DNA of 64,000 nucleotides from Schmidtea polychroa (GCA_044892525.1 CM097885.1:9302001-9366000); one strand, 5' to 3'; positions 5,032 to 61,799 are shown, counted from the stretch's first letter. Notes: generated by a model not told the origin, from the letters alone. Made by a program: numbers and translations.

Positions 5032-6110
5032 TTAGGGTGGGCCGACTTTTGATTTGGAAGTCGGAATTGACCGGATTCCTATTTTTGCCGATTAATCGGC
5101 ATCCGGTACGAACAGGCCTACCGATTCAAATAGTGTTAAAACCTTTTAATAATAAATCATAAAATTATAAATAAGTATTGAGCGTTAAATACGTTTATAA
5201 TACCTTTTTCATGTATCCATTACATTATCATGTCTAATAAAAATATTAAAAAACAAATAAAATTGATCAAAACAAACACTTCTTTATTATTATATTATGG
5301 TTTCAATTACATAAAAATTTCCATAAATAAAATCTCCGTAAAAGTGTGCTCCGACTATGACAATAAACGGTCTGTTTGTTATTTGAAACCGAGCAGCACT
5401 AATCGAGGCTTGTAATAAATATTGTTCCAGAACAACATGCCTGGCTGTACATGAAGCAGAGATCGAATTACTAAGAGCTTTTAATAAAAAATACTTTTAA
5501 GGCAGATTAATCAAGATTAAAATATAAATTCACCAGTGAGCTAGCGCCAACAATAATTTTATTAAACTTCAGGCCAATTACTGTCTTCACTGATCAATCT
5601 AGATAAAAATATAAATCCACCAATCAATGGGGCTTGCAGCCTTGCACCAGCAATTTGTATTAGACTCTTTTAGGGATATTTAAATAATTAATTTATAAAT
5701 AAAATATATATTGTGTTATAAGTATCAAGTACTATTATATAGTAAAAGTATAATAAATATAAATGCTGGCACGCGTAATTAGCATTATTATTAAATTCGC
5801 CATTTAAATCGGGTGTTTTAATAATACCAGATTTAGGCAACAATTTGTATTAAGCTTTTATTATTAACAGACTCAAAATCCATATTTAAAGATTTACAAA
5901 ACTAAATCATTCAAATATTTTAATAAGATTCTGAAGTTCATTTAATATAACTAAAACTAGAAATGTCAAAGCCAAGAAGTAATATTTGGGAGTATTTTGA
6001 AATCAAATCTATTGATGAGAGTAAGGCAAATTGTCTAATTTGCAGGGATAAACTCAGGCGAGGTGGGAATGACTCACGTAATATTGGTAATATGAACCTC
6101 CATATAAGCG
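5032..6110 (+). mobile_element. 5' part of a hAT element with BED zinc finger
   Basis: TAGGG-type end at ~5032 with CCGATTAATCGG subterminal motif. ORF 5963 MSKPRSNIWEYF...ANCLIC matches the BED finger WxxF..CxxC pattern and is truncated near 6110. Confidence 0.6.
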
Positions 6111-9502: not shown

Positions 9503-10162
9503 CTTAAATAACAGACTTAGGATGTTTTAAAACTATAACTTTCATTATTTGAATTGAAATATTTCAACAAAGTCGAAAGATAATCAGGTTGGCAATTTTA
9601 CTTACTTTTACTTCAATATTCAGTACTCCATGTTTGTCTCTGATGAGAATAGTATCTTAAACATGGTGATAAAATATTAGTTCATCCAAATTCGAGAAAT
9701 TTTTTCAATAGTTATGTGGCTCTGTTGGTTTTGAATTAGTACTTCATAGACTGTCTTCAATTGTCCATTCCTTCAATACAATATATTTTATCATTTTTTA
9801 ATGGAGTTTGGAAGTGTCGAGTTCCTATTTCTGCATTGCAAAGTGAAATTCTGTTTTATTTCACTAGTGGCAAAGGAAAATGGCGTTACATGTGATCAAA
9901 AACAATTTACCATAATTATTTAAAATATTTAATTTTCTATAAAAGCAATGATTTTATTAATTGCATTTAGCAAATTGTTAATAGCGAATAATTTGTTTAT
10001 TTAAAAATATAAGTTAATATTATTATAATATTCCTATAATTTATACATGCATTGCATAAATATTACAACTTTATAGCAGAGTACTTAACTAATAAACAAA
10101 ATCATTTATGCCATAATGATTGTTAATATTATTATAGGTTTCCAATTATAACTTTCATTCAG

Positions 10163-22280
<12,118 letters not shown>

Positions 22281-24003
22281 GTGCAAATCCCCCATAGGAT
22301 TTGCTTTGTGTAGAAATAAATTATTATTATATTTTTTAATTCTGTTTTAATTGATTTTAAAAATTATTTTAAATTGAGTAAATTTGTTTTAAAATTTTTT
22401 AATGTAATTTTTGAATTTGTTGCCAAATTATTTTGATGAACAATGTCGGTTAACGCAATATATATATTTGAATTGAATATTTCAAGTAAGTTGAATAAAT
22501 AACATAAATTTCGTCATCAATATCTACTAAAAATGCTTGATTGTTTCTGTAATTACTAACAGTTCTCCATCGAAAGTTGAATAGTTTTTTCACTATTGCT
22601 GAATATTTATCAAAATGTAAAATATCAGCTTGTACAGGAACTTCTCTATGGCTGTGAAAGAATTATTTATTTCGTTCAAATAATGTAACCATTTATGATT
22701 TCTGTAAAGTAATGTATAAAGTCACAAAATAAAACGGAAGTAGAATAAAGATCAATAAAAACACCGAAATAGGAATAGTGCAGAAATTAATATCAATCGG
22801 GGAAATGGGTATGGTTGAACTCGAAAACATGAGACGAATACAAAAATAATAATAAAACTTTAGTGAGAGGTCCATAAAATATATAAAGTAAAATAACAAA
22901 CTAATTAATTAATTAATCGTTAATGGAAGGCCTGAACTAATGAGAAACTTGGAACACCCGACTAATCAGAAGTAGAAACGAACTCGACTGAGCGTCAGTT
23001 TAGAAGTGAAATTGGTAGGTTTCAAATAATCCCCAAAAGAATTTAAATAACGGTTACCTAATATTAGGTATAAGCCGATAATTATTGGGTAAATGTTGAT
23101 TCAATGTCGGATAATATCTTACAGAAAAGTATTATAGGAAAGTTGGCAGTTGGTTGAAGAAACAAAATCAGAGGGCGTTTACCAAAATCCAAAAGTCCTA
23201 AAGAAAGAAAAGAAATCAAGTAAAGATAGATAAAACTAAATTATCGTACCAGAAAAAGTAATTACACCTTGGGCAACCTACCCTTTGATAACGATTGCCT
23301 ACGAAAGAAAGGTTAGTTATTTGATTGGAAAAGGAGACGAAGAGTCGGCAACTAACCGACTTGTTAAATAACATTTTTCTATTTAACTTAACATGCAGAG
23401 TTGCTTATTGTATCGATTTTAAGATTAAGTTTAAGCAGTTTTTTTAAGCAATCTATAAAATTTTCTGGAAAAAATATGCTGACCCAAAAGAACCACTTTT
23501 TACATAATCTAAAAAGGTAAATTAGATTTTAAACTCAGACGGACACGACAGAAAAGTCTAAAATCGCACGCAACATAGCACGGAATAACAAAACAGTCAC
23601 ACAATTAGATATTTGCACGCATTATCTAGCGAATCGAAATCTGAAATCGAAAGAAATTGTACATTCAATTGGTAAATTTTTGATTATAAATTAACATTTT
23701 TAAACAGTTTTTGTCTTTGTTATTTTAAAATAACGAGACCTCAACACAAATAAAAGAGGAGAGTATATAAATCAAAAGATTTTTCAGTTCTATCGCCAAT
23801 TAAAATTTTGTTGATGACGTCATGTTATTCATATTTTTATTAAACTAAATTTTGACTACATAGATTACATAATTTTGCTCAGGAAATTGTAATAATTATT
23901 TAACACACTTTCGTTGTCAAATAAATTTTTGAACCAGTTTTCTCTAATTATTTATATAGTATATCAAGTTGAGAATTTATCAAATTCAACATTATTTATT
24001 CAT

Positions 24004-24966
24004 TTAACCTTCAATTTGAAGATATTTGGTAAAACAATAATTATTCAAGCTATTTTTTACATCTATTGCAGTTGGTCGTTTTGTTGAAACTTTAATCAGC
24101 ATTCTTTGAATTATAGTTGCAACAAATGAATCAGTGTTTTGAACATTAGTCAGATTTATTTCGTCTTTGATAGTTATATTTTTAATTTCATCCACCTTTA
24201 AAACATTCGGATTCAATGGATGATAACCGGTATAAAGAATTATCATGACAATCGCACATGACCATATGTCAACTGCTAAAGTTTGAGGTTCGTTTAAAAG
24301 AATTTCTGGTGCTATGTACCCCACCGTCCCTACTAGACACACAACCGGATTTTTCTTATCATAAAAAATAGAGAGACCGAAGTCGATTAATTTCACTTTT
24401 AACAGGATTTTGTTATATTTGTAACAGACAATATTTTCCAATTTTATATCCCGATGAATGATGGACTTTGAATGAATGAATGAAACTGCACTAAATATTT
24501 GTATCGTTATTGTTAGAGCAGTACCTACAGTCAGTTTTCCATGAGACATAATCTCATTACAGAGATCGCCACCGCTGGCAAACTCGTATATAAGTGATTT
24601 TCCTAATATGCAGGTGTCAAAGCATTCAATGAAGGGAATTATATTTTCATGCTGACCTATTTTAAGCATCATTTTTAATTCAGTGATATAAAATTCAGAA
24701 TTCTTAAACACTTTCTGAACGTATAATTTTTCAGTTCTTTCCTCTTCCACGAGCAATACCATTGCCCCTTTGGTATTGTTTAAAGGTTTCACAACAATAT
24801 AATCATTTGTTTGCTCTTTGCTGAAATTTGACTTCAATTTAGAAATTAGTGGCGCAAAATTACCTCTTGTTATGCTCTTTATTATCGATCTAACTTTTGA
24901 AGTTGATTTTTTGGATTTGGTATTTTTATCATTTTTATTTTGTAGACTTTTGGTAAAGATTTTCAT
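24004..24966 (-). CDS. Intronless Ser/Thr protein kinase (CAMK-like), paralogue 1
   Basis: Uninterrupted ORF with the beta3 Lys (YVQK), alphaC Glu, HRDIKLEN, DFG, GTVGYIAPE, DIWSC and KRPTA. First ATG at 24966; the ORF track starts upstream at a TTG (25047). No GxGxxG loop. Confidence 0.9.
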   Translation of the reverse strand: MKIFTKSLQNKNDKNTKSKKSTSKVRSIIKSITRGNFAPLISKLKSNFSKEQTNDYIVVKPLNNTKGAMVLLVEEERTEKLYVQKVFKNSEFYITELKMMLKIGQHENIIPFIECFDTCILGKSLIYEFASGGDLCNEIMSHGKLTVGTALTITIQIFSAVSFIHSKSIIHRDIKLENIVCYKYNKILLKVKLIDFGLSIFYDKKNPVVCLVGTVGYIAPEILLNEPQTLAVDIWSCAIVMIILYTGYHPLNPNVLKVDEIKNITIKDEINLTNVQNTDSFVATIIQRMLIKVSTKRPTAIDVKNSLNNYCFTKYLQIEG

Positions 24967-25222
24967 AGTATATTTAGACGGTAATAAATATTTTATATTT
25001 CCTTGGAGCTTATTCTCATATAAATATAATATTATTACATAATACAATGTATTTTTATGTGAATAGTTTTCCGTAAAATATCATATTTATTTGATCTTAT
25101 CAGTGGCGCAGCCAAGGGGGGTCAACTAGCTGTGCCCCCCCATGGCAAAAAGAATTCGCACTTTTTTTCTTCGTTTTGTCATATGTTCAAAAATTAATAG
25201 GTCAATATTCATTATGTTAAAC

Positions 25223-25541
25223 CAGCGTTTCCCAAAGTTTTTTCACCGCGGCACCCTTTTTGATTTCAAGTTTTTGACGGAACCTTATTTACAAAAATCT
25301 TAGAATTTTAATATCAAATATTATTAAAACTAATTTTAAATTCGTACTTTAAATGTGTAGTTTAAAAGAATATAATTAAGAAACTGTTTCCCTTTGAAAA
25401 AGAATTTGAAATTGGATCGAATAAAATCGAGAATTATTTATTAATCTTTATTTATAAATCTTTTTTTTATAAATTATTTATTTACAAAAATTTCGCGGAA
25501 CCCCTGCTATCAGTCCACGGAACCCACTTTGGGAAACGCTG
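25223..25541. mobile_element. hAT (Charlie-like) MITE with 8-bp TSD TGTTAAAC
   Basis: TIRs CAGCGTTTCCCAAAGT / ACTTTGGGAAACGCTG, with TGTTAAAC on both sides. Confidence 0.93.
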
Positions 25542-25799
25542 TGTTAAACCATTAATTATTCGATTCATGTAAGATAAAGTGGAAATCTGGTTCCGTTATA
25601 TGGCTGAGAATGTAATGACAAATAAAATGGTTCCTCAAATGTGAAACACAGTAGAAATATATTAAAAAGAAAGGTTTTGGAGAAAGTTGCTTTTTAAAAT
25701 CGGTTTCTGTTTTATTTAATAGATAATAGATAGGCATAATAATTTTTGACATCCATCGAAGCCTGTGTCATGCTCCTGGAGCATTAAAAGTTGTTTAAC

Positions 25800-26540
25800 C
25801 ATACGTCATCCAGGTATTGGAGCTATACCATCGAAAACCAAAATCTACTAGTGAAATGGTTGTTGCAATAAAAACAATGTTTAGAAATGGTAAACCAGAT
25901 AATTTACAAACTGATTTGGGTAAAGAATTTTATAATAGCAAAGTTAAAGAAAATCTAAAGAAAATTACTCTGTTTTTTCACAATTCAAAGCTGCTCATGT
26001 GGAAAGGTTTAATAGGACATTAAGAGATCGATTGAAAATATATTTTGTACATCAAGGTAACAAAACTTGAATAAATGTTTTACCGAAAATAATTCATAGT
26101 ATCAATCATTCCGAACATGGAGGTCTAAAGGGTATGAGACCGATTGATGTAACATATAAAAATGCTATGAAAATATTATTTTCACAACAAGATGTAACAA
26201 AAATTAAGAAACCTAAATATAAAGTTGGTGATCATGTTAAAATAAGTAAAATATCGGCTTCACCATTCATTAAAAATTTTGACAACAACTGGAGTGACGA
26301 AGTCTTTCAAATATTGAAGATTAATACGAAACAGAGTCCCTTTATGTATGTTATTAAAGATATTGATAATAATGAAATCCAGGGTAAATTTTACGAACAG
26401 GAACTGCAAGTTATTCCGACACCATCTGTCTTTAGAATTGAAGAAATTCTAAAATCAAAATATAAATATAAGGATAAACAATATTAAGTCAAATGGCATG
26501 GATATCAAAACCCAACTTGGATATCAGCATCTCAAATTGA
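25800..26540 (+). pseudogene. Polinton-type retroviral-like (rve) integrase with C-terminal chromodomain, disrupted
   Basis: KPDNLQTDLGKEFYN, VERFNRTL, PKYKVGDHVKISK..NWSDEVFQI..IQGKFYEQELQ and VKWHGY..TWI, with frameshifts and stops. Confidence 0.88.
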
Positions 26541-27560
26541 ATGAATAGAAACAGTTTTTTCACTATTTTACCAAGCAATAGCTGTCCATTAATTCATCCG
26601 AATAATGAGGCTAGTAAATTTATCGTTGAGTTACAAAATCCCATTTACCTGCATAACATGTGGGAAGTTGCTTTGCTTGATTACACATTTGTGTACAATA
26701 CATTTCCATTTTACAGTAATTCTAAGATTGAATATAAAGAAATTGCACCGAAATCAGTTAGCAGCTTTTATGTTATTGAACCCGAAGATGATGAAATGCC
26801 AATAAAAGAATTAAATAATGATTGTTACATGTATATTACCAAGGGAGTTTTAAATATTTGTTGCGATTACCATCCATTCGAGATAACATTTGAAGATGCA
26901 GCAAGCGTAAAAAGATTAGGAGTTCCTGAACCAACAATTATAAGTCACACTGATACATTTCAAATTGTAATTCCGCCGTATGTTGATGGCATTATGAATA
27001 ATGTAATTAGAATGAAGTTAACGTACAATTTTTTACAAGATTCAGTTTTCACATTTACTGATGATTTATATATAAAGAAGCTTGAAGATTTAACCAACTA
27101 TTTAGCAAGTAATTGCCCCCATATTTTCAAGTCTGTTGAACTGAATAAAAATGTCTTCAAATTCAGTCTCGGTGAAAACATTAAAGAAGTTATATTTGAT
27201 AAAAACTTGGTCAACACACTTGAATTACAAAAACAATTATATAATGACAAACAATTTGGTGGAGTTCGTAAAGGAAAAATATTTAATCACCATCAACAAA
27301 TGTTCATCTATGGCGATATTATTGATCCGATAAATGTTGGTGATTCACTGGTCCCTCTTCTGAAAGCGGTGTGGATTAAGAAATATGAGCAAGATGAAGT
27401 TGTGCAAATACAAATAGAAAATCATATGTATATACCAGTTGGAAGAACATGTATAAACAATATAAAAATTAATATACGCGATGATAGCGGAAATTTAATC
27501 CGATTTGCAAACGGTTCAAAAACACACGTAACTTTACATTTTAGAAAACAAGATGTCTAA
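26541..27560 (+). CDS. Adintovirus penton / Polinton minor capsid protein (intact 339 aa)
   Basis: N-terminal FFTILPSNS..HPNN.AS.F.V.L..PI.L...WEVAL and C-terminal MFIYGDII.P..VGDSLVPLL..YIPV....INNI.I.IRDD.G..I.F...THVTLHFRK motifs typical of this family. Confidence 0.85.
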   Translation: MNRNSFFTILPSNSCPLIHPNNEASKFIVELQNPIYLHNMWEVALLDYTFVYNTFPFYSNSKIEYKEIAPKSVSSFYVIEPEDDEMPIKELNNDCYMYITKGVLNICCDYHPFEITFEDAASVKRLGVPEPTIISHTDTFQIVIPPYVDGIMNNVIRMKLTYNFLQDSVFTFTDDLYIKKLEDLTNYLASNCPHIFKSVELNKNVFKFSLGENIKEVIFDKNLVNTLELQKQLYNDKQFGGVRKGKIFNHHQQMFIYGDIIDPINVGDSLVPLLKAVWIKKYEQDEVVQIQIENHMYIPVGRTCINNIKINIRDDSGNLIRFANGSKTHVTLHFRKQDV

Positions 27561-27939
27561 TCCTGATATAGTTTTTCTTTATGCCAATAGTCAAACTGGT
27601 GGTGAATTACCTTATTTTGTTGGCAAACAATACGGATCTGGATGGTTAAAAACTATTGGTCGGTTTGCTCTTCCTATTCTTAAACGTATAGGAAATTTTG
27701 GTATGAAAACAGCTAAAGATGTAATAATGAATAATGCAAAAATATTACCATCTTTAAAATCCAATGCCATATCTGAATTGAAAGAGGCATTACCAGATGT
27801 AATTTCTTCATTACCAATTGTAATGGTATCAAATGAAGCATCAGAATCTGAATAGTCTGAACTACAGCCTAAGCGAAGAAAACATCGAAGGTATATAAAC
27901 AAACGAATGAAAGGACGTAGAACTATATTCGAAAAATGA
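27553..27939 (+). pseudogene. pX/pVII-like basic core protein
   Basis: QTGG and QYGSG protease-site-like motifs, amphipathic GWLKTIGRFALPILKRIG. After one TAG (27853-27855) the same frame continues as KRRKHRRYINKRMKGRRTIF to a TGA overlapping the hexon ATG. Confidence 0.7.
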
Positions 27940-29130
27940 TTTGTGGAAAAACTGAATTATGTATTTTTGATCGACCGACTCCTCAGACGGTTATAGAATA
28001 TGCGACATTTGAAGACGTATTCCCATTTAATTCAATTGTTGATAATAAAAGCGATATTGAATTCAAGATAACTGGTCTCATACTGAATATCTCGATTTGA
28101 ATGATACATTACTCTACATTAAATTAAAGATTACAAATAATAATGGAAAGGAATTACCGGTTACTTCAGATGCAAAAGCTAACAATTACTTGTTCCATAC
28201 ACTTTTTAGTGTTGTTATTGTTGATTGAAGGTGGAAACGGAAGATATACACAAAAAGCTTTAATTGAAACTATTTTAAATTATAATGGAGATAGTAAAAA
28301 CATTTGCCTGGCTCCTATGGGTTATATTCCATCTGATAAGGAAAGAACAACATTAATTGCCGGTTCTAAATTAGGTTCCCTCTGTTCTTCATTGCAAATA
28401 GATTTTATGGATCAACCAAAATATTTACTTCCAGGAGTTAATGTTAATGTAACACTGAAAGGAAACCCATCATCATTCAGTATACATTCGCTAACAGATG
28501 AACCAAAGATAAAGGTATTGGAAGCAAAATTAATGATTCGCAGAGTTCGAGTTGAACCATCAGTTTTTACAGGGCATCAAATAAGGTTAAATTCTAAAGA
28601 TGCTATATATCCAAGAAACTGTCGACTTTACAATCAGTAAAGGTTCATCGTCATTTTACAAGGAAAAATTATTTATTGACAAAAGATTACCAAATTTTGT
28701 TTTAGTGGCATTTCAAACCGAATCTCAATTTAAGGGAACATATATGGAATCCAGATCAGTCTTTAAACATTTGGATATTACATCAATCACTTTAGCCAAA
28801 AATAGTGACTATCGAGAAAAATATACACAAAACCTTGACACAAATGATTATACTACAACGTATATGCAAAGTATTGTGAGAAATCTGGAGTATTTGGATA
28901 AAAACATGAACTGTGGGATTACACTTGAAGATTTCAAAGATAAATATCCATTCTTTACATTTGTTTTGTCTCCAGATTTTGATTTGAATCAAAGTCAATT
29001 ACCAAAACAAGGAAATTAAAAATTGAGTGTAAATTTTAATAAATCACTCTAGGAATCGGTTTATGTAATAGTATACGGAGTTTTCGAAAGAGAATTACAA
29101 ATTACTGCAAGTCGATCAGTATTGGTTTGA
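27936..29130 (+). pseudogene. Adintovirus hexon / Polinton major capsid protein, frameshifted
   Basis: MICGKTELCIFDRPTPQTVIE..IEFKI..EYLDLNDTLLY.., LQIDFMDQPKYLLPGV, LPNFVLVAF, GITLEDFK..YPFFTFVLSPD, GN.K..VIVYGVFE. Several frameshifts and stops. Confidence 0.85.
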
Positions 29131-29229
29131 AAGTATTTCAAACTGTATTGGTTTAAACGTAGTATAAATGAATTAAACAATGGAAACAATTTATTATGGA
29201 GTAAGTTTTTAATTACTAATTAATTTTAT

Positions 29230-29631
29230 TTGATTAGTTCTATTCAGGTTAATCGAATTGGAAAAATGTTGTTGGGGAATCAGTTTACTGGAGTATTCCC
29301 ATTAGATAAAATCCCCTATCTGAACGCAAACCAAGCTATAGTCGTCAATACTCAATCATCAAATCTTGAAGGAGAACATAGGATTGCAATATATGTGAAA
29401 CCTGATAAAATACATGTTTTTGATTGGATGGGATATTATTATCCAGATATAATGATAACAAAACTACAAAAAATTGGTAAACCCCTTCAGTATAATAAAA
29501 TTCGTTATCAAAATCCAATGACTCAAACATGTGGTCAACATTGCCTTGCATGGTTAATTTCAATGTTATATAATTATAAACGATGTAGTTTAATAAATCT
29601 TATTAGTAAAAATGTCTCGTTATTTTATTGA
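29230..29631 (+). CDS. Adenain-like cysteine protease (start codon TTG, possibly decayed)
   Basis: GVFPLDKIP..VVNTQ....GEH(R)IAIY..FD.MG..RYQ....TCGQHC: catalytic His, Asp and Cys plus the oxyanion Gln of adenoviral-type proteases. Confidence 0.85.
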   Translation: MISSIQVNRIGKMLLGNQFTGVFPLDKIPYLNANQAIVVNTQSSNLEGEHRIAIYVKPDKIHVFDWMGYYYPDIMITKLQKIGKPLQYNKIRYQNPMTQTCGQHCLAWLISMLYNYKRCSLINLISKNVSLFY

Positions 29632-30030
29632 CTTTGTTGTTTATAATGATCATGCTGGTGGAATAATTATTAAAGAATTATGTACTATGAATATAAATAA
29701 TATTTTACGCCCAAAGTATTGGTTATTTAATGATTTACCATTTTGGTCTGGACATGAAAATTTAGATCGATCGGAATGGTATGAAGACGAAGATTGGTTT
29801 TGTCCAACATGTATATTGAGGGATGTAGAAGATACAAGTGGAATTTTCTATGTCACTGATCAAGATAAACTAACAGTTTTGAAGAATTATTTCACAAACT
29901 TAAGATTAATAAAATATTCAATACAATTATCAGAATATTTTCCTGATAATATCCTATGTCCTTACCCTGATCATTCTAATTGTGCTTAGAAAAATTGTTT
30001 AATTGCTGTGTTAGATTATTTAAGAAATTA
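29612..30030 (+). CDS. Small viral accessory ORF of unknown function
   Basis: 125 aa ORF (YFIDF..IIKELC, CPTC, CPYPDHSNCA). The frame continues briefly past the TAG (KNC). Lies within the viral gene block. Confidence 0.5.
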
Positions 30031-30329
30031 ATAAAGTTTTTGAATAAAAATTATATTATTATTAATTTTGTTATTACTCATATCATTACGAGTGCAGTTT
30101 AAATGCATGATTAATCATGTTCTCTTAGTTTGTGTGAAATTTTTATTTTGTAATGTGTGTAAGTTTTGCTTCCCAATGTTTGAAAAGTATTTCACAGTGT
30201 GTGTAAATTATATTTCATAATATGCGTGTGCATGTAATACTCTCAATTTCTATTGGGTTAATACATATTACGCAATTTATGATATATAAAGTAATGTTTT
30301 AAAATATTTCATCACTTTTATTATATACG

Positions 30330-31970
30330 TTCACCGGTTTTGATTGGGTCGAACAATTTCTTACTGAAATTGAAATGATAGGGAAATATATTGTAACACC
30401 TTATTATTATAAAAATTATCAAAAGAAAATGATAATTACAGATGAACAACAATTAATGTTTGAAAACTGCACATGCTATTTGTGCAATAAACATTTAGGT
30501 AGTCCAGTTAGGGACCATGACCATTTTACCGGTCTATATCTTGTACGTATATACTTGTACGACTTGTAATCTGCCGAGGCAAATTAGACATACCCTTCCT
30601 GTCGTATTTTATAATTTAAAAGGTTATGATCTGCATTATATCTTGAAATTTGGCCTTTCAAAATATCATTCATGGAATATTAGCTTTATTCTTTTAACCA
30701 GCGAGAAATTCCTTAGTCTTTTTGCTAGGATTGACTCATTAACTGTTTATAGACTCTTTATAGACTCTTTATAGACTCTTTATAGACTTTTATCAATTTG
30801 TCAGCGAGTCTTTAAATAATACTGTCAAAACTTTATCATCTTTACCCTTGACCGAATCAGAATTTCAGGGTACAATAATAACTGCAAAGGGAATTTTTCC
30901 TTATGATGCCGCAACTTCCTTAGAGGTTTTGCATAACACTCATCAGTTACCTCCTATTTGGAAAGATGTGATGCCCGCTGATTATGAGACAGCTCAGAGA
31001 ATTTAGCTTGAAACTTTATGTACTTCACTTTGTGATTACATGATGGTTTTTTTCCAACTATTAAGAGCTAAGTCAATTGCTCATAACCAGCTAGAGCCAT
31101 TAAATTTCTTAGGGATTCCAGGTATGTCTTGGAATTCCACATTATTAACTTTAAACTCTCCAATTGAGCTCCTCACCGATATGGAGATATATAAGTTTTT
31201 CGAGGGCGGTATCCGTGGCGGACTAACTTTTGTAAATAAGCACTATGTAAAAACAGAATCGGATACCGCATTGTTTTACATAGATATAAATAATTTATAT
31301 GGTTTGGCTTTAAGTCAATCATTACTATGCAGTAACTTCCAATGGGTTACAGATGATAATTTAATAAATAATATAATTGTTGAGTGCACAACGGTAGATT
31401 TAGATCTGCTTGATTATGGTTATACCATAGAAGTGGATTTAGAAATACCGACGTCAATTCACGATAAACTGGATGATCTTCCCGTTGCCGCTGAAAGATG
31501 CGTGTACCGGGTTCGAAAATAGAGAAGCTGTTGCTTACACACAGCCCCAAGAGGAACTACGTTTATCATTGGAGGCTTCTACAAATATTTATTAAATTAG
31601 GTGTTAAAATATCATAAACACATAGAGCAATTAAATTTAAACAAGATAAAATTTTCAAAATTAATATTAACACAAATACGGCGTAACGAACAGCGTCAAC
31701 AAATAAACTTGATAAAAACTTTGATAAATTTTTAAACAACAGTCTTTACGGCAAGACAGTTGAAAATCTTAAAAAACGTATTAATTTACGTCTGTGTAAT
31801 TCTGCACAGAAATTATTAATATTATGTTTGAAACCATTTTTTCGTAAATGTACGAAAATCGATGATGGCCTGATATCGGTTTTATTGAGGAAGTACACAG
31901 TGTGTTTGGATAGACCCAGTTACATTGGTCAAACTGTACTAGATTTATCCAAACTTAGGATGTACCAGCA
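30330..31970 (+). pseudogene. Protein-primed family B DNA polymerase, truncated at both ends
   Basis: CYLC..VRDHDHFTG..CTTCNL, PVVFYNLKGYD (ExoII), FIDS, KGIFPYD, IRGG, YIDINNLYG (motif A), FLNNSLYGKTVEN (motif B), PSYIGQTVLDLSKLRMY. Sequence ends before the DTDS motif C. Confidence 0.9.
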
Positions 31971-32144
31971 GATGATCTCGGCAGATGATCCAGATGATTT
32001 TCATGGTCCAGCAGATAATGATTATTTTGGACATAATTATTTTCGATGATGTGGTTAAATTATTTAATATGTATTGATTTTATTGCCTTGAATATTTTTA
32101 GCAGTACTTTGTGATCAATTTTTACTAGTATTTTTAAACATTGT

Positions 32145-32146
<2 letters not shown>

Positions 32147-32212
<66 letters not shown>
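32147..32212. repeat. (AAT)n microsatellite
   Basis: Pure AAT repeat. Confidence 0.95.
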
Positions 32213-32215
<3 letters not shown>

Positions 32216-32379
32216 ATGTTAAAGTTTTGCCTTGAATATTTTTAGCCATACCTTTATGAGCAGTACCTTTAGGGGGACAGAATATCTTGTCGGATAAACT
32301 CAGAACATATAATAATATAAAGTATGTGTAATAATTGTATTATGTCTTTGTTAATTAAATCAACTTAAATTTTAAAATA

Positions 32380-32870
32380 CTGCAACGTAATATATTATTT
32401 AATCAAAAAAGTATGATGAGTCGTGTGTCTTTGTTTCTTAAAATATCTTTATAGTGTAATATTTCTTTGTTTAAAATGATGAGTAATATGTCTTTGTTAC
32501 TTAACATGTTTTCATTATGTAAAATATATTTATTACACAATAGTTCTCTGTTTAAATTTATGAGTCATATGTCTTTGTTGTGTAATATGTCTTTTTTATG
32601 CAATACGCCTTTGTTATGTAACAGTACTTTGTTTAAATTGAAGAGCCATGTGTTTTTGTTTAAATATTTGACCTTAATCCGACTAACATTAAAATTTGAC
32701 CTTAAATGGTCTAAAATCGCCTTTGACCTTAAGTCTTGACCTTAAAATCGATTTTGACCTCAGTGTTTGACCTTAAGCTGTTCTTTAAATGACGTTGCCC
32801 TCAAAATTTGACCTTACGGTGTCCTACCGTGACCTTAAAATTTCCTATGACCTTATATTGATCTTGAAAA
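32380..32870. repeat. Subterminal short repeats of the viral element
   Basis: Degenerate TGTAATATGTCTTTGTT-like units followed by about nine TGACCT(T) motifs. Confidence 0.7.
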
Positions 32871-33969
32871 AAACACCTCCTTATGATGTAATTTCATTTG
32901 TGACATTATCGATTACGCAATAGTTCTTCGTTCCCGGATCCACACTTTACCCATACTTATATACAGTACTGTACAAGCATCCCGCCGAGTACAAAGAACG
33001 AAATATAAAAGTCAATCATTCACACCCATAAATACAAAACGTATATAGACGAATAAGATTATTGAGCACTCATTTGTGAAATGATGACTTATTTGCATCA
33101 ATTTTTCGAATCTGAAATAATAAACATTTTCCAGAATATTTCGTACAGCTGCATTTTTTAAATCTGGAGACTGATTATAAACATTGTTTTAATTACTAGC
33201 TTTATATAAACAAAAGATTTAAAATGAAATTAATTAATGTTAAAATACTTTTTGACTGTGGCCCCATTTGGAGGTGACAAATTTCAATGTGGCCTATGGA
33301 AATAGAAAGGTTCTCCACTCTTGGTCTAGTCAATATATATGTCAGGAACAAATTAACAATTAAGTTCAGATAACGAAGACTGCTCCATCGCAATCGATTA
33401 TTCAAACAACCCGAAAATAGGAGAGTCATATTCAATAAAATGTATTGTGAATCAAAATATCTAAAGCGCCAAGTACACTTGGTATAAAGATTTGGAATTC
33501 GATATTCCAATAGAAATGTAAACGTCGATGCTGCTCGAATCTACTTGATTTGCTAATGGAGAGATTGATAAAAACAATAATGATGAATATATTTTACCTA
33601 TTAGTCTTGTTCCTACAAAAAAATACTAATTTCATTAATAATTTTAATTTCAATTATACGACAACTCAAATCTCCCGTCAGGCTCGGATATGGGGAAATG
33701 AATTTATATATTTAATATTATAAATGTTACAAAAATAAATATCTAGATATAATACTATTAAAAATATAATAACAAAAATTTGACTTAAAAAGTTCGAGAT
33801 TATGTTTTACTCTATTAAAAGCAATACTGTTGTATGTATCATAATCACTTCGATTTAAATAACATTTTATCTCTTGATTTTAGAAAGTATAGTTACTGTA
33901 GACAAATTATATTCATTCATAAACATATTTGAAAATTTAGTTATAAGAAAGCGCCATTCAAACATTCAT

Positions 33970-34013
33970 TTTACGATATATTTCGACAGTTTTCCTGTCA
34001 TAATCAGGTAGGA
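33970..34013 (-). ncRNA. Penelope-type minimal type I hammerhead ribozyme motif (core variant CUGAUUA)
   Basis: Minus strand reads CTAC-CTGATTA-T-GACAG-GAAAA-CTGTC-GAAA-TATA-TC-GTA. Part of an ~85-bp repeat also found at 61480-61560. Confidence 0.6.
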
Positions 34014-34172
34014 TAGAATAACTATACAAATTATCAGGCGGCAAGCGGGCCGCGGGTTGTGCATGGCTGGTATAAACTTTTGTTGTCAAATAAATTTTTG
34101 AACCAGTTTTCTCTAATTATTTATATATTATATCAAGTTGAGAATTTATCAAATTCAACATTATTTATTCAT

Positions 34173-35132
34173 TTAAACTTGATTTCGATGATATTTGATA
34201 AAAAAATAATTATTCAAGACCCTCAGTATATGTATTGCAAGTGGCCGTTTTGTTGGAACTTTCCTCACCATTCTTTGAATTATAGTTGCAACAAATGAAT
34301 CAGTGTTTTGAACATTAGTCAAATTTATTTCGCCATTGATAGTAATATTTTTAATTTCATCCCCCTTTAAAACATTCGGATTCAATGGATGATAGCCGGT
34401 ATAAAGAATTATCATGACAATCGCACATGACCATATGTCAACTGCTAAAGTTTGAGGTTCGTTTAAAAGAATTTCTGGTGCCATGTACCCCACCGTCCCT
34501 ACTAGACACGCAATCCGGCTTTTATCATAAAAAATAGAGAGACCGAAGTCGATTAATTTCACTTTTAACAGGATTTTGTTATATTTGTAACAGACAATAT
34601 TTTCCAATTTTATATCCCGATGAATGATGGACTTTGAATGAATGAATGAAACTGCACTAAATATTTGTATAGTTATTGTCAGAGCATTACTCTTAGTCAG
34701 TTTTCCATGCAACCTAACCTCTCTAGAGAGATCGCCACCGTTTGCAAACTCGTATATAAGTGATTTTCCTAATATGCAGGTGTCAAAGCATTCAATGAAG
34801 GGAATTATATTCTCATGCTGACCTATTTTAAGCATCATTTTTAATTCAGTGATATAAAATTCAGAATTCTTAAACACTTTTTGAACGTAGAATTGCCCTT
34901 TTCTTTCATCTTGCACTAACAATACCGATGCTCCATTTGTATGCTTTAGAGGTTTCACAACAATATAATCATTTGTTTGTTCTTTGTCGAAATTTGACTT
35001 CAATTTAGAAAGTAGGGGCCCAAATTGACCTCTTGTTATGCTTTTTATTATCGACCGAACGTTTGATGTTGATTTTTTGGATTTGGTTTTTTTATAATTT
35101 TTATTTTGTAGACTTTTGGTAAAGATTTTCAT
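34173..35132 (-). CDS. Intronless Ser/Thr protein kinase (CAMK-like), paralogue 2
   Basis: Duplicate of 24004-24966 with the same catalytic motifs. The duplicated block is ~34076-35245 versus ~23907-25079. Confidence 0.9.
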   Translation of the reverse strand: MKIFTKSLQNKNYKKTKSKKSTSNVRSIIKSITRGQFGPLLSKLKSNFDKEQTNDYIVVKPLKHTNGASVLLVQDERKGQFYVQKVFKNSEFYITELKMMLKIGQHENIIPFIECFDTCILGKSLIYEFANGGDLSREVRLHGKLTKSNALTITIQIFSAVSFIHSKSIIHRDIKLENIVCYKYNKILLKVKLIDFGLSIFYDKSRIACLVGTVGYMAPEILLNEPQTLAVDIWSCAIVMIILYTGYHPLNPNVLKGDEIKNITINGEINLTNVQNTDSFVATIIQRMVRKVPTKRPLAIHILRVLNNYFFIKYHRNQV

Positions 35133-35619
35133 ACTATATTTAGTCGTTGATAAATATTTTATATTTCCTTGGAGCTTATTCTCATATAAATATAATATTA
35201 TTACATAATACAATGTATTTTTATGTGAATAGTTTTCCGTAAAATAAAATATTCTGATTTTTTGTGCATTATAAAAAATGTTTTAAGAAAAACTTGAGAC
35301 TAATAAAAACATTTATTTACACTGCAAAACAAAATACTAATTAATAAATAAAATAAATAAAAAAAAATAATTAAACTAAATGTGGAACAAAGCGAATATT
35401 TTTGAACATTCATCAATAAAGAAAATAAATAAACAGAATTAATTTATGAAAACTTTTGAATGGTTGTTGTAATGCCTCTGACTCCCAATTTTATCAATTT
35501 AATAATTGAACTTAAAATATATTATTAAATTAATTAAAATTAAATCATTGTTTAAATAATTTTCACTTCTTTTCAAAAATCAAATTCAATAGAAAAAATT
35601 AATGAATCGTTCAGTTTAC

Positions 35620-35870
35620 TTTAATAATCGCACGCTATATACTGCACCGTTAATAACCACGCGCCTACAACCGCTCTGTTAAAAAACGCGCGTAAACAAA
35701 ACCGCGACCTTGAAAATCGCGACTTGTTTTAAAAATTGTTTTATAAATATTATTATAAATTGAATAATTAAAATGTACTAAGTTTCAAAAAGATTGGTTA
35801 CCAATCGCGATATTGTTTGCGCGCGGTTATTAACGGCGCGGTTGTGGGTGTGTGGATATAAATGTATACC
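35620..35870. mobile_element. Small inverted-repeat MITE-like element
   Basis: CCGTTAATAACC.CGCGC near the left end and GCGCGGTTATTAACGG near the right end; CGCG-rich in an AT-rich background. Confidence 0.55.
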
Positions 35871-35999
35871 AAAAACACATATGATCGATTCTGAATAATC
35901 GAATCCATTAACAAATTAGTATATAAGGAGTAGTCTCAGCCGATAATTGAACACTTTTTTTTAAAAATCTAAATCATCTGTTAAAATCTCAATAAACAT

Positions 36000-38220
36000 C
36001 TTGTTACAACTCCAACATTAATAGTTAACCGATCTGTTTTATCAAATTAAACTTTATTTAGAACATCAATTGGCTGTTCTTATGGATTTTCTTATGAAAT
36101 AGAATCAGGAAGTTCATCTTTAGTGCTGGCAGATCCAGGAATATGATCTGAATCAATAAATAAAGAACTTTTAGAAATTTTAGCGAAGAAAAGACCAGTG
36201 CAATTTTGTGCTAATATTCATTTCCTATCAGATGAGACAAATAGAAGATTTTCTTCAACATATTTTTTTAGAATTTTAGAAAATGTTAAAACAGTTTCTA
36301 GAAACTAAATAGTTTACTCTACTAAATTGAATATTTTGAATATGGTATTTTGTTTTTGCTACAAATTATTCAGCAAAAATATTATTAAAAGCTGACCAGT
36401 GCTGGATATTCTAATTGGCAACATGAAACAACGTATTTTGTTCAACATGAAAACAGTGCACAACATATCGAATGTTCAAAAAAGTGGTGTGAATTAAAAT
36501 TGCGGATGCAAAAGAACTGTACGATAGATAAAAGGCTTCAAAAATATAATGAAAAGGAAACAAAAGGATGGCGTGGTATTATTGAAAGAATGATAGCTAT
36601 TGTTTAATTTATATCTAGTCAGTGTTTAGTATTTCCCGACATATCGACAGAGTTATACCATCCAAACAATCGAAATTTCATAAAGCGGGAAAAGGTTAGC
36701 TAAATTTGATCCGATAATAACAAAGCATGTAATAAACGTACAAACATCAAAACAAAAAAAGTCACATATGTCACATCCATTTTTGAAACCAAATCATTGA
36801 TTTATTAGCAGGAGCTGTGACATTGAAATTAATAACCATTATAAAAAATTCAAAATATTTTTCTATTATACTTGATTGCACGCCAGATTTTAGCCAAGTG
36901 GAAAAAATCACGTTTGTTGTTCAATGTGTGAATTTGACGCGAAAATGAAGCAACAGTCGAGGAATATTTTCTCGGTTTTTCTCCAATAGTTGATACGACC
37001 GCTGAAGGTTTAGCAAACTTCCCTACTAACGAATTGTTGCCTAAATATAGCTTGGATGTACAAAATGTTCGTGGTCAAGGCTATGATAAGGGATCCAACA
37101 TGAGAAGTAAGCATATAGGACTTCAAAAAAGAATTTTGAATAATAACCCAAGAGCAACTTTTGTACCATATGCAGCAGATAACCTAAATTTAGTCCTTAA
37201 TGATGCTGTTAACATTAATAATGAATCTGTTGGATTTTTCGATATTGTTCAGGAATTATTTCATTATTTTTCTGTCCCTCTATTAAGAGGGATAAGTTAA
37301 AAATCAAAATTAACAATTTAACTTTATAACCTTTAAGTGGTACTAAATGGGCCAAGTCGTATTAACGCTATAAGACACTTGCAGCAAAATAGTAAATAAA
37401 TTTCTGAAAGTTTAATTAATTTAAAAGATGATCAAAGTAAATATATAAGCACAAGAAATACGGCAAATTCGTTAATTATCTGGCAAGACATACTCTCAAA
37501 AATTGACGTAGTTAGCAAAATGCAACGAAATTACCACATAGACATTACCACTTTCACTGCCAAGGCTAATTCAGAAAATTTTCCTACAGGGCCAAAATAT
37601 TTTTATGCAGAAATATGTTGCCTATGTTAATATAAAATTTTGGTACCAATTTAACTCATTTCCCATTTTATGTTTGGTATATTTATATTTATGCATTTTT
37701 ATATTTTTTAATATTTGTTATCCAGGCATATTACATATATGTTATACATATTTTATAATACAAACTTACTTTTTAAATATTTCAGATTATTTTCAAGTAA
37801 TATAATAAATATTATTGCAATTTATTATCATGACTAAAAAAAACGATTATCAAGCTGGAAGTTTATTTTCATCACGAACACGCCACAGAGTTTTTTTAAC
37901 TTATCCGCATGCGCCACGATATATAAGTGCATAGAAATATCCATAGAGCGTTAATACTGTTGTTAAACGGACTTCATATGAAAATTTGAACGTAGAACAC
38001 ATATATTATACTTGCGCCTACGGGATCATACCCGTAAAACATATATGTTATATGTGGCAGTGAATGTGTTAATGAATGTAGTAAGGCGTTGGGTAATTTA
38101 AAAAGATTTTTAAATGAGAAAAGAGACGATGCCAGTTTTAATGAATATATAAGTGAATCTACAAACCTTGCACAAGTTATTGATGTAGAAAATGAATTCC
38201 TACAAACCCGCATAAGGATG
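36000..38220 (+). pseudogene. ZMYM1/Tip100-like hAT transposase remnant, interrupted by a MITE
   Basis: RRFSSTYF, SKYFSIILDCTPDFSQVE, VRGQGYDKGSNM..GLQKRIL..NPRATFVP..NLNLVLND. The frame DINECSKALGNLKRFL is restored when 37549-38068 is removed. Confidence 0.85.
37549..38068. mobile_element. piggyBac-like MITE (TTAA target)
   Basis: TIRs CAC(T/A)TTCACTGCCA; right flank TTAA, left flank TTAC. Excision restores the host transposase reading frame. Confidence 0.7.
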
Positions 38221-39867: not shown

Positions 39868-40603
39868 AAATATTTCAAAGTCCATTCAAACATGGAATTA
39901 TTTTTGAAGATTATCGATTAATTTCATTTTTCCTTGGATACATAGGGAATGAAAAAACTTGTCATACTTTTGATGGTACGGTTTTATATATAACAAATGC
40001 GGGTGTCTCTTTTTACTGTTGGTAACTAAGGTAAATTCTCACTCCTTCACATAGATACGAAAATTCAATTTCCAAAAAGCTATAATAGGGTTTTAAAATA
40101 GCGCAAAAAAACTAAAAAATGTCATTTTTCCTAGAAATTTTTTTAATTTACTTTTTGATACACTACAACAAAAATGCAATTTATTCATTATAAAATCTTC
40201 GTTATTTTATTATAAAATATTTCAAAGTCCATTCAAACATAGAATTATTTTTGAAGATTATCGATTAATTTCATTTTTCCTTGGATACATAGGGAATGAA
40301 CAAACTTGTCATATTTTTGATGGTACGGTTTTATATAACAAATGCGGGTGTCTCTTTTTACTGTTGGTAACTAAGGTAAATTCTCACTACTTTACATAGT
40401 TACGAAAATTCAATTTCCAAAAAGCTATTATTTTTTAAAATAGCGTAAAAAAACCAAAAAATGTCATTTTTCCTAGAAATTTTTAAATTTACTTTTTGAT
40501 ACACGATAAAAAAAATTATTGTTATAAAAATATTAATTATAATTTTCTAAAGAAAAAATGCAATTTATTCATTATAAAATCCTCGTTATTTTATTATAAA
40601 ATA
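39868..40603. repeat. ~350-bp tandem duplication overlapping the PPase 3' end
   Basis: AAATATTTCAAAGTCCATTCAAACAT... at ~39869 and ~40216. A more diverged partial copy lies at ~41086-41260. Confidence 0.85.
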
Positions 40604-42404
40604 CCATTTGTTATCTGAAACAGGGAAACTAGTTATTAGTGATAAAATTTTATCAGCAAATCAACCTCTTCCCACTGTGAGAGATTCTTCGAAAATATTT
40701 TCTTTGGCCAGTATTTCCATGCATCCTTCGGGGGAGATTCTAAACGGGCTGTCACTAATGGTAACATTGGAACTGAAAAGGGAAGTAAAAATGGGCCCAC
40801 AAAGACACCAACCAACCAATCAATATCGGATTTAATTTCTCCCTTAATTAAAGATCTCCAAGACTCGTGAGTTTCGTCGATAATATTTAGTGAGAATTCC
40901 TACGAATTTAGTTTCATTTATATCAATAGGATTTTGGCTATTTACTCGGTTTTGATATTCACCATTGAACGCGAATTGAGTTTGAGCCTTACCTTCAGGA
41001 ACCTTGTAATATTGGAACCAGTGCCGAGTAGCCTAACCAATCAATGTGTTACTAATGGAACTTTGCACAAGTTTTGCCATCATATCATAGAATAATTTTT
41101 TTTGGAGATTATCGATTAATTTTTTTCACTTAGATACTTAGAAAATCAATAAAATTTTTCAAAAAATTTAGATTACGTCGCCTTATAAAAAATGAAGTTG
41201 AGCATCTTTTCTATGTGGGTAACCAATGTAAATTCACGCGTTTTTACATAGTTAAAAAAAATCATTTTATTTAAAACAAAAAAAAATTCAAAAATCCCGC
41301 CAAATATTATTTAAACAAATCCCACCAAAAATCGAATTATCGCCTGGCATTTAGAACGAAACAAACAGGTTCAATATCGGATATCCATGAAAAATGAAAT
41401 ATATATATATAACATATTGCGTAATCACATATAAACATACATGTCGATATCATATATGTTAACATTTGCTACCAATTTGTGATAAATAGTGATTAAAATC
41501 ATCACAAATAATAGAAAATTAAAATTTAGGATTGGAAATAATAGATTTTCACGGATTATTATTATATTATTGTGATTGGTCAGCGATTGACCAATCACTG
41601 AGCGTTAACAAATCTTTTAATTTTGTAATTTAAAATTTATTAAAATTTCGATTACCTCCAATAACCCCGGCATTTCACATTCAACGTCGGAAATGTCTAT
41701 TATTAATAGTAATTTAGTTCTATAAAAATTCATTTTTTAATATAACCATTAATTTTATCACTAAGTGGATCTCGAGTATTTATTACAATTAATTTCCAAT
41801 CCATTTCTCCTGTTCACAAAAATTTATATTGATAAATAACATTATTAAATGCACCTTGATCAATCATTCCTAAAACTCCCAATACCTTTACTTCTAAAAC
41901 GGTTCCTGTTTCAACTATATCGCTACCAATTTCACAAGCATCAATCGGATCATTGTCACCAACAATACCGGTTTTATTATTTTTAACAAATGGATTTTCC
42001 CAAGTCTGAGGTAAAGCCCCATAATTCCAAATATATCCATGAAATGGAAATAAATTCTTGATATTTCGAATTTCACCTTTTTTCAAATCAAACATTATCG
42101 GATTCAACTTCGCTGTTTTAGAAATTTCCATTTTTCCATTAGTGAATTTCGGAATTTCAACTATCATATTAAAAACTTTACGATCTTTATTCGAATACAA
42201 ATTAATATCATGAAAAGGTGAAATAATTTGACCATCTTTTTCTAATTGAAAATCAAATAAAATATCATCGATACGAAGCAAAATACAACCGATATACTGT
42301 TTAAACGAATTTGAAAAATTCGTGCCAAATCTCACTGATTTATAAGATAATCTTTTCACACAAAATTTGAGAAAATAATTTGCATAAATATTTTGAAAAG
42401 ACAT
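40586..42404 (-). CDS. PPA2: Family I inorganic pyrophosphatase with possible mitochondrial presequence (PPA1/PPA2-like)
   Basis: Exons 42404-42290, 42241-41855, 41809-41747, 41696-41656, 41032-40946, 40899-40817, 40772-40666, 40614-40586. Motifs [52 protein letters not shown]. The PPA1/PPA2 distinction is tentative. Confidence 0.9.
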
Positions 42405-42468
42405 CAATTTACGATAATTAGAAAAACAAAAGTTATAAATTATAGAAAATTTAAACCACAGAAATTAT

Positions 42469-60630
<18,162 letters not shown>

Positions 60631-61279
60631 TATTTAAAAATGAAAGGGAATTTCGGAACAAATATACGTTTCAAGCCACCATAATTAAATAGAATATATC
60701 TTTCCCATTATTTATTGGTATAGTTCTGAGAAAGATCTTTTGGGACGTAGATAATATAATAATAATAATTATTATTTTTATTTATTTTATTTCAGATTGA
60801 TTTTTTTATTTTAAATAAGGTTGAAATTTAAAATTATTTTTATCATTTACAGAAACAATAACTGCTAATGCCGAGTAATTCGCTGGTGCTAACGATGCGC
60901 GAATGAAGTGATTTGTTAAATTAACTATAAAAATGTCCCCAAGCAGAATTTTCACAAAATTCAAACTTATCAATAAAAAGAAACCCTTTGAAACATTTGC
61001 CTAGTTATCAAGATAATCGTTTGCGAAATAGTTACGTATTTTTATCATGCCACTTTATCTATGTCAATTTTAATTAAATAATTTAATTTAAAATTTAAAT
61101 TAAATTAAATTAATATTATATTATAAGAAAAAAAAAGATATACAAAATTGAAGATTAAAATAGTTACTAAGTATTATTATTGTAATTATTATTATTTTTA
61201 TTATTATCAACATTATTATTTTTTTCTAAATTTAAATTCTTATGATTATTATAATTTATATTAATAATTTTTAATATTA

Positions 61280-61390: not shown

Positions 61391-61507
61391 TTTTAATTAT
61401 TACTATTTTATTATTAATATTATTATTTATTATTAATTGTGTTGAATAAATAGTTAAACAAACATGGCAACGATTTAATTATAAGAATGCGCCACTCAAA
61501 CATTCGT

Positions 61508-61550
61508 TTCACGATATATTTCGAGGTTTTCCTGTCATCATCAGGTAGGA
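61508..61550 (-). ncRNA. Penelope-type minimal type I hammerhead ribozyme motif
   Basis: Minus strand reads TCCTAC-CTGATGA-T-GACAGG-AAAA-CCTC-GAAA-TATA-TC-GTG: intact CUGAUGA/GAAA/UC core, stem II bulged. Confidence 0.65.
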
Positions 61551-61799
61551 TATAATAACTTATGAAATTAAGGATTTTTGAACAAATTTATTAATAGTAC
61601 AAATTATTAATTACATCAAATTTTTTTAATAAAAACATTAAAAAAAATTATAAAAAATTATAATTCAAATAACATATGATTTTTAAAATTTTAAAATATT
61701 GAAATTTAATTTAGTAATTTATTAATTATTTAATTTAACAAACAATAATCAATACATACAATATATAAAAAATTATTTGAAAACATTTAAAACACAAGT

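Follow-up and report, generated by a model that had tools for sequence, protein, structure and literature searches.

A probable host tandem duplicate of an intronless kinase gene on both sides of a dead Polinton remnant in Schmidtea polychroa

Background

Degraded endogenous copies of adintovirus-type Polintons are widespread in animals (Starrett et al. 2021, PMC8502044). We analysed a stretch of 64,000 nucleotides from Schmidtea polychroa (GCA_044892525.1 CM097885.1:9302001-9366000; hereafter the window, with positions counted from its first letter), in which such a copy lies between two direct repeats, each with an intronless protein kinase gene (K1 and K2). With the described elements the window copy has in common an rve integrase, a double jelly-roll capsid, an adenain protease, a type B polymerase and, as a candidate only, a penton. 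In contrast to them it has no packaging ATPase and no left end, and its integrase and polymerase are incomplete. In the main text of PMC8502044, the word kinase occurs once, for a casein kinase 2 motif and not for a kinase gene.

Three further systems resemble the locus in part. The krma genes on nematode Mavericks (10.1101/2022.07.12.499685) are alike in that a kinase gene lies near a Maverick; however, the KRMA proteins are CtkA/HipA-like with a ubiquitin-like domain, number 532 and are often Maverick-linked, whereas K1 and K2 are CAMK-like, low-copy and outside the element, and the structure model of K2 has a canonical CAMK-like fold and not a CtkA/HipA-like fold with an N-terminal ubiquitin-like domain. 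The mammalian Tssk1 and Tssk2 genes (PMC7401350) likewise form a tandem pair of CAMK-group kinases without introns, with a distance of 3.1 kb in mouse; this is an analogy only, a likeness of arrangement. In the fog-2/ftr-1 pair of Caenorhabditis elegans (PMC3966223), short identical tracts likewise lie among conversion-resistant patches, which were read as functional divergence; conversion between K1 and K2 differs in being inferred from two sequences alone, without population data or an outgroup orthologue pair. A Polinton flanked by a duplicated host gene was not found in the literature searched, a search that was not exhaustive.

Our reading, to which we assign a probability of roughly 0.7, is that the kinases are a host tandem duplicate outside a dead Polinton remnant, and that the junction between them was later filled by mobile DNA, the element being passive. 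We found no support for the more striking reading, in which the kinase is cargo or the virus can be excised. The arrangement is real but likely ordinary: on our reading, a tandem duplicate of the host has a dead Polinton in its spacer, in an element-rich genome, which in itself matters little. The kinase pair belongs to a fast-evolving single-exon family with one known relative and would be useful for the study of how paralogues diverge while gene conversion acts on them.

Kinase repeats and copy number

The repeats and their genes are as follows.

23907..25087, no strand: direct repeat copy 1 (kinase K1 and short flanks), blastn self-match
24004..24966, minus strand: K1, intact intronless Ser/Thr kinase open reading frame (ORF), 320 aa, CAMK-like, no GxGxxG (Pfam PF00069, E=2e-42)
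34076..35253, no strand: direct repeat copy 2 (kinase K2 and short flanks), blastn self-match
34173..35132, minus strand: K2, intact intronless Ser/Thr kinase ORF, 319 aa (Pfam PF00069, E=2e-43)

In the comparison of the window with itself by blastn, 23907-25087 matched 34076-35253 over 1182 columns at 91.9% identity (E=0); at 1.18 kb per copy, this was the sole long direct repeat in the region. An earlier note on this DNA had described two direct repeats of about 1.17 kb, each with an intact intronless kinase, and this was confirmed by blastn and by the Pfam Pkinase match in both copies; of its borders, the left ends agree with ours, and the right ends (25079 and 35245) are about 8 nt short of 25087 and 35253. 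The two proteins are identical at 270 of 321 aligned columns, and there is no third kinase copy within the 64-kb window. The repeat extends past the ORFs by 113 nt upstream and 97 nt downstream, where K1 and K2 differ at four and two sites, respectively (6/210 in all). An AATAAA motif follows the kinase stop codon with the repeat homology continuing beyond it, and no poly(A) tract is present at the repeats. No match to K1 or K2 was obtained in the exact-sequence collection, and zero depth was found in the kinase-only bins with X8, presumed to be an RNA run, which is no evidence either way on expression.

Contigs of 4 of the 15 listed runs were mapped to 22000-37000 at a likeness of at least 80%, and three runs (X1, X3 and X5) were informative; no parent gene of the kinase was seen at this threshold. 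Summed contig depth, in which only matches of at least 80% count and which gives a contrast only and not a copy number, was 28, 47 and 90 (X1), 383, 419 and 377 (X3), and 81, 73 and 73 (X5) in the three kinase-only bins, and 8,167-62,212 (X1), 68,989-336,186 (X3) and 10,839-47,733 (X5) in the 12 element bins (26008-32019), a difference of at least 91-fold, 165-fold and 134-fold, respectively. Long low-copy contigs had depths of 37-69 in X1 (records 1, 6 and 8), 133-224 in X3 (records 9, 10, 15 and 16) and 30-47 in X5 (records 17-23), and the depth of the kinase is near the single-locus level in all three runs. We take the genome to have about two copies of the kinase, or a few, and very many of the element.

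Family and fold of the kinases

The best solved-structure matches of K1 were CDPK, CaMK1, DCLK1 and DAPK. The structure model of K2 (predicted local distance difference test score, pLDDT, 83) has a bilobal kinase fold with a helical, low-confidence N-terminus, and its best Foldseek matches were CDPK, CaMKII and ZIP kinase; among the structural matches, viral kinases were no better than cellular CAMKs (best E, 2e-17 vs 5e-19). By these sequence and fold matches, K1 and K2 are predicted to be eukaryotic Ser/Thr kinases of CAMK-like type. The beta3 Lys, the alphaC Glu and the HRDxKxxN, DFG, APE and DxWS motifs are present (in K2 numbering K85, E96, H171-N178, D195-G197, P219-E220 and D232). The glycine-rich loop GxGxxG is absent from K1, K2 and the relative P0339, that is, from all three members of the family, and with this loop missing the kinase activity of K1 and K2 is predicted to be likely but not assured. 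In the motif alignment (the region of K1/K2 residues 63-69 and 205-214), the usual position of the activation-loop phospho-threonine is occupied by Cys in K1 and K2 and by Asp in P0339. The missing loop, together with these residues, hints at phosphorylation-independent regulation.

P0339 (320 aa, 37% identity, on a 1,683-nt Logan contig) was the sole close kinase relative among 1.84 billion representatives; in the Atlas it matched generic kinase clusters only, and a word-based search for relatives likewise gave generic kinases only (best E, 8.5e-26 at 31% identity). In the tree of the best 45 of 124 candidate proteins with K1 and K2, which took in no TSSK sequences, P0339 was sister to K1+K2 (support, 99/96). 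No relatives of K2 or P0339 were found in viral_contigs. P0187, in which a kinase is joined to a penton-like fragment, was considered as a case of cargo and rejected: its kinase part is of another type, with a GGGGFG loop, and lies outside the 12 best K2 matches, and we regard P0187 as a chimeric gene model. If the analogy with testis kinases is followed, the likely job of the pair would be that of tissue-restricted, fast-evolving signalling kinases.

Mosaic divergence of K1 and K2

K1 and K2 differ in the encoded amino acid at 50 codons and by silent changes alone at a further 19. The replacements are clustered (p<0.002) in four regions of the model: around residues 63-81 (beta1-beta3 hairpins), 131-149 (alphaD-alphaE), 205-209 (activation loop) and 290-320 (last helices). 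Silent divergence was 0.22, 0.19 and 0.16 within 3, 5 and 8 codons of an amino-acid change and 0.047, 0.036 and 0.031 beyond these distances (Fisher p=0.0007, 0.002 and 0.007); away from the replacements it matches (0.03-0.05) the flanks of the repeats. Silent changes are closer to replacement changes than by chance (p=0.002), and identical runs reach 149 nt. This mosaic of silent divergence, an analysis of two sequences only, points to a likely older duplication that would have been homogenised tract by tract through patchy gene conversion.

The Polinton remnant

The alignment of a 339-aa ORF of the window with 24 of its 77 homologs was used to fetch 17 related loci (1.1-14.4 kb long, none shown to be a whole element), whose ORFs map on the window in the order integrase, 339-aa ORF, small ORF, capsid, protease, 125-aa ORF and polymerase. 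The remnant consists of the following parts.

25802..26538, plus strand: Polinton integrase remnant, first ~85 residues missing, with a frameshift and stops (tblastn of the L003 integrase, Pfam rve and Chromo, E=3e-50)
26541..27560, plus strand: unbroken ORF of 339 aa, putative minor capsid (penton) gene (of 553 candidates, 77 were homologs; after the integrase in related loci)
27553..27855, plus strand: small ORF of 100 aa, conserved in its place after the penton-like gene and before the capsid gene (tblastn from L001, L002, L003, L011 and L012)
27939..29127, plus strand: major capsid gene, broken by a frameshift and stops (tblastn, E=2e-76 to an L001 ORF)
29200..29631, plus strand: adenain-type cysteine protease remnant (tblastn to L001, E=1e-31, and L013 ORFs; the L013 ORF matches Pfam Peptidase_C5)
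29612..29989, plus strand: 125-aa ORF of the element, no function assigned (tblastn from an L001 ORF, E=9e-9)
30595..31968, plus strand: remnant of a protein-primed DNA polymerase B, spread over several frames and covering residues ~520-1020 of a relative with 1214 aa (tblastn, E=7e-48)
32426..32957, plus strand: likely right subterminal region, three 81-nt repeats and eight TGACCTT motifs (exact end inferred)

The major capsid gave no Pfam or PDB sequence match; the model of its intact homologue in L003 matched double jelly-roll capsids (Foldseek E=1.5e-15), namely those of iridovirus, PBCV-1 and mavirus. The polymerase relative, an L006 ORF, matches Pfam DNA_pol_B_2 (PF03175). The 339-aa ORF had no Pfam match and no PDB sequence match, and its alignment gave no match in viral_contigs; the Atlas lead was the Sputnik V18/19 family (44% of the cluster, score 0.96), with recognition below the threshold of the tool. 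From its position and this lead, the ORF is a likely candidate for the minor capsid (penton) protein. It is unbroken over its 339 codons while the adjoining integrase, capsid and polymerase are broken. By gene content and modelled fold together, the block derives from a Polinton/Maverick of the adintovirus type.

At the right side, the 81-nt repeats and TGACCTT motifs span 32426-32860, and the locus-specific contigs end at 32987 in X1 and X3; therefore, another high-copy repeat starts near 32958. No inverted partner of this region is present in the window, and a candidate partner in 10000-22218, of which the local alignment beat 20 shuffles, was rejected as AT-rich low-complexity sequence. Terminal inverted repeats were thus not found, the subterminal region being single, and the target duplication was unreadable. 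Neither of two related packaging ATPases matched 22000-38000 at E<=1; we read the ATPase as lost together with the left half of the element, and the block as a remnant derived from the family rather than a complete member of it. The element is dead: it is without the ATPase and the left end, and its integrase, capsid and polymerase genes are broken. Its divergence from other copies in the genome (X1 records 2-5) is 8.5-10.5%. At 25959-28212, single contigs had a depth of ~2,400-2,600 in X1, where the low-copy level is ~40-55; these depths suggest a young, near-identical Polinton subfamily elsewhere in the genome.

Junctions between repeats and element

The earlier note had the repeats enclosing the viral block. 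The Polinton remnant does lie between them, but the repeats do not touch it: the gap from repeat 1 to the first integrase match (25802) is ~715 nt and that from the likely right end (~32957) to repeat 2 is ~1.1 kb. Both are filled with high-copy repeats, as judged from contig depth, and no recognisable host spacer is left between the repeats. The following features lie in the gaps.

25101..25140, plus strand: orphan transposon end, hAT-like, from its sequence; 13 nt from the end of repeat 1, very high depth in the bin
25223..25541, no strand: miniature inverted-repeat transposable element (MITE); its ends are inverted (match 25217-25238/25526-25547) and its target duplication of 8 nt is perfect (identical 8-mers 25215-25222 and 25542-25549)
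32958..34069, no strand: filler of high-copy repeats, from contig depth; at 34069 it closes with another hAT-like end, which differs from the first in sequence

The ends at 25101 and 34069 are presumably of the hAT type, and the small repeats are taken by us to be MITEs, the 8-nt duplication being seen directly. Ends of this kind near the breakpoints had been pointed out before and do exist at both positions, at a distance from the inner border of the homology of 13 nt at repeat 1 and 6 nt at repeat 2. They are different in sequence, their 8-nt flanks differ, they share no target duplication, and no complementary partner for either was present in the window. The depth in X1 was 56,520 and 99,006 in the bins of 33022-34023, and 33935-34023 recurs at 61473-61560 in the self-comparison.

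Origin of the arrangement

The kinases are intact and low-copy and the element is broken and high-copy; a host duplicate with passive insertion is favoured. Under this reading, a single-exon host kinase would first have been duplicated at the DNA level. Selection would then have kept both copies, the junction between them serving as a tolerated landing site for hAT-like elements and the Polinton, and deletions beside the hAT-like ends may have removed the old spacer and the left half of the Polinton; such deletions would account for the position of these ends right beside the inner border of each repeat. The paralogues would thereafter have swapped short tracts by gene conversion, which homogenised the flanks and the catalytic core, while surface patches (the P-loop hairpin, alphaD-alphaE, the activation loop and the C-terminal helices) would remain divergent. 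A tandem retrogene duplication later split by the virus had been one of the earlier proposals. Its second half, a host duplicate split by the element, fits best; its first half, a retrogene origin, is not demonstrated by the repeat, which runs past AATAAA and has no poly(A) tract.

Several points weigh against this reading or parts of it. The branch of P0339 is long (1.36). Positive selection between K1 and K2 is not supported by the overall ratio of nonsynonymous to synonymous divergence (dN/dS=0.74), the silent changes by themselves show no significant clustering (p=0.70 and 0.61), and the mosaic could in part be imitated by multi-base mutation or by selection acting on the flanks. That the duplicated unit was once longer is an assumption, and leftover homology of the spacer was not found (p=0.14 and 0.20). 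Contig depth is a contrast and not a count of copies, and the 17 loci checked for the kinase are not shown to be complete elements. The sequence of events, with duplication before insertion, is putative: the element diverges from other copies by 8.5-10.5% and the old patches of the kinases by ~20% pairwise, and the two events may therefore be similar in age.

Among the alternatives, it is unlikely that alternative (reversed-ends) transposition of a hAT element made the tandem duplication and the Polinton came separately. The closeness of the transposon ends to both inner homology borders speaks for it, and the mechanism is known for maize Ac/Ds, where it leaves 8-bp target duplications (PMC3744419). 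However, the two ends differ in sequence and have no partner end in the window, their 8-nt flanks also differ, and deletion adjacent to an insertion explains the same borders; a duplication driven by the neighbouring hAT-like elements, as suggested in the earlier note, is not borne out by the first and third of these observations. A composite hAT transposon was also considered and rejected, the ends and 8-nt flanks not matching.

Also unlikely, and slightly more so, is a one-ended integration by the retrovirus-like integrase of the Polinton, in which one end would have been joined normally and the other truncated and repaired by the host, with ~1.2 kb of target (the kinase gene) copied to both sides and later transposons landing at both junctions. 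The precedent is retroviral one-ended integration, after which one end is normal, the other is often truncated, and hundreds to thousands of bp of the host are duplicated (PMC5041404). A single recognisable end, the other end cut inside the integrase gene, a direct duplication without host spacer left and the compatible ages of the element and the kinase divergence would fit. But the repeats do not touch the element, so that separate later insertions would have to be assumed at each junction to account for the gaps of ~715 and ~1,100 nt; what lies next to the two inner borders is a hAT-like end in each case and not an end of the element; and truncation is common in old copies. No report of one-ended integration for Polintons was found in a limited literature search near the topic. 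Were it true, a Polinton would have made a retained host gene by a route that we have seen described only for retroviruses, and the paralogue so created would have been kept and diversified by selection long after the element died.

An assembly artefact, with two divergent alleles of one locus written in tandem, is very improbable. The copies are 92% and their flanks 97% identical, and among the pieces listed none spans the whole stretch; but the homology breaks off sharply after 1.18 kb, and the four flanks beyond it differ from one another. In each of the three runs, the summed depth over both copies is ~3.5x the depth of low-copy contigs. Contigs identical to the window are present in X1 on the outer side of each repeat, as are contigs of 400 nt that are identical to copy 2 in X1 and to copy 1 in X3. 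X5 and X6 contain only 0.57 of the words of the copy-2 region, which we read as haplotype divergence because X5 covers both kinases.

That the kinase travels as cargo of the Polinton family in the manner of the krma kinases is largely refuted: the precedent (121 of 532 KRMA kinases are Maverick-associated; 10.1101/2022.07.12.499685), the lack of introns and a G+C content at third codon positions (GC3) of 0.28-0.30, near that of the viral ORF (0.26) and also of host exons (0.19-0.30), stand against the depth contrast of at least 90-fold, the position of both kinases outside any inverted ends (K2 lies ~1.1 kb past the likely right end and no left end lies beyond K1), the lack of a kinase match in any of the 17 related loci at E<=0.01 and of a relative in viral_contigs, and the CAMK-like rather than CtkA/HipA-like character of K1 and K2. 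The linkage of kinase copies to Polinton genes that the earlier note proposed to test for was seen neither by contig depth nor in these loci.

Recombination between the repeats

Crossing over between the repeats would, by computation, remove 10,169 nt and leave one chimeric kinase on the chromosome. The circle so formed would be inert, a deletion product and not a released virus, because neither the ATPase nor the left end is present in the element and none of its integrase, capsid and polymerase genes is intact. Neither single-kinase alleles nor circle junctions were present among 15 joints listed (417 more exist), and contigs cannot phase 1.2-kb repeats.

Host neighbours and other features of the window

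The nearest host genes are as follows.

21879..22217, plus strand: HROB-like exon, the neighbour on the left side (Pfam PF15072 at E=7e-5, which does not reach the curated cut-off)
40589..42419, minus strand: right host neighbour, inorganic pyrophosphatase gene with introns (Pfam PF00719; four tblastn pieces)

The best match of the pyrophosphatase was 81%. That the other host genes here have introns holds for this gene, with its four pieces, and is inferred only for the cation-efflux (ZnT-like) and HROB-like genes, so that the statement covers few genes. Exons of the cation-efflux gene lie near 60127-60633, and a further one is presumably at 42465-42719. Apparently inside an intron of this gene, a long terminal repeat (LTR) retrotransposon of Gypsy-type order (gag, protease-reverse transcriptase-RNase H, integrase) occupies 43595-48637 (minus strand); its LTRs are identical but for a 17-nt indel, and it is very young. 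A broken fragment at 4707-5125 (minus strand) is like a rhabdovirus nucleocapsid gene (PF00945, E=3e-5 on 4844-5125, below the cut-off) and is probably an endogenous RNA-virus remnant. Decayed DNA-transposase fragments, which we take to be hAT-like, lie at 1461-2257, 17051-18194 and 36389-37630 (with a DUF4371 match at 36938-37300). Imperfect palindromic elements, probably MITEs, were seen at 56612-57028 and 35641-35862, and a tandem array of six 28-nt units at 54596-54819.

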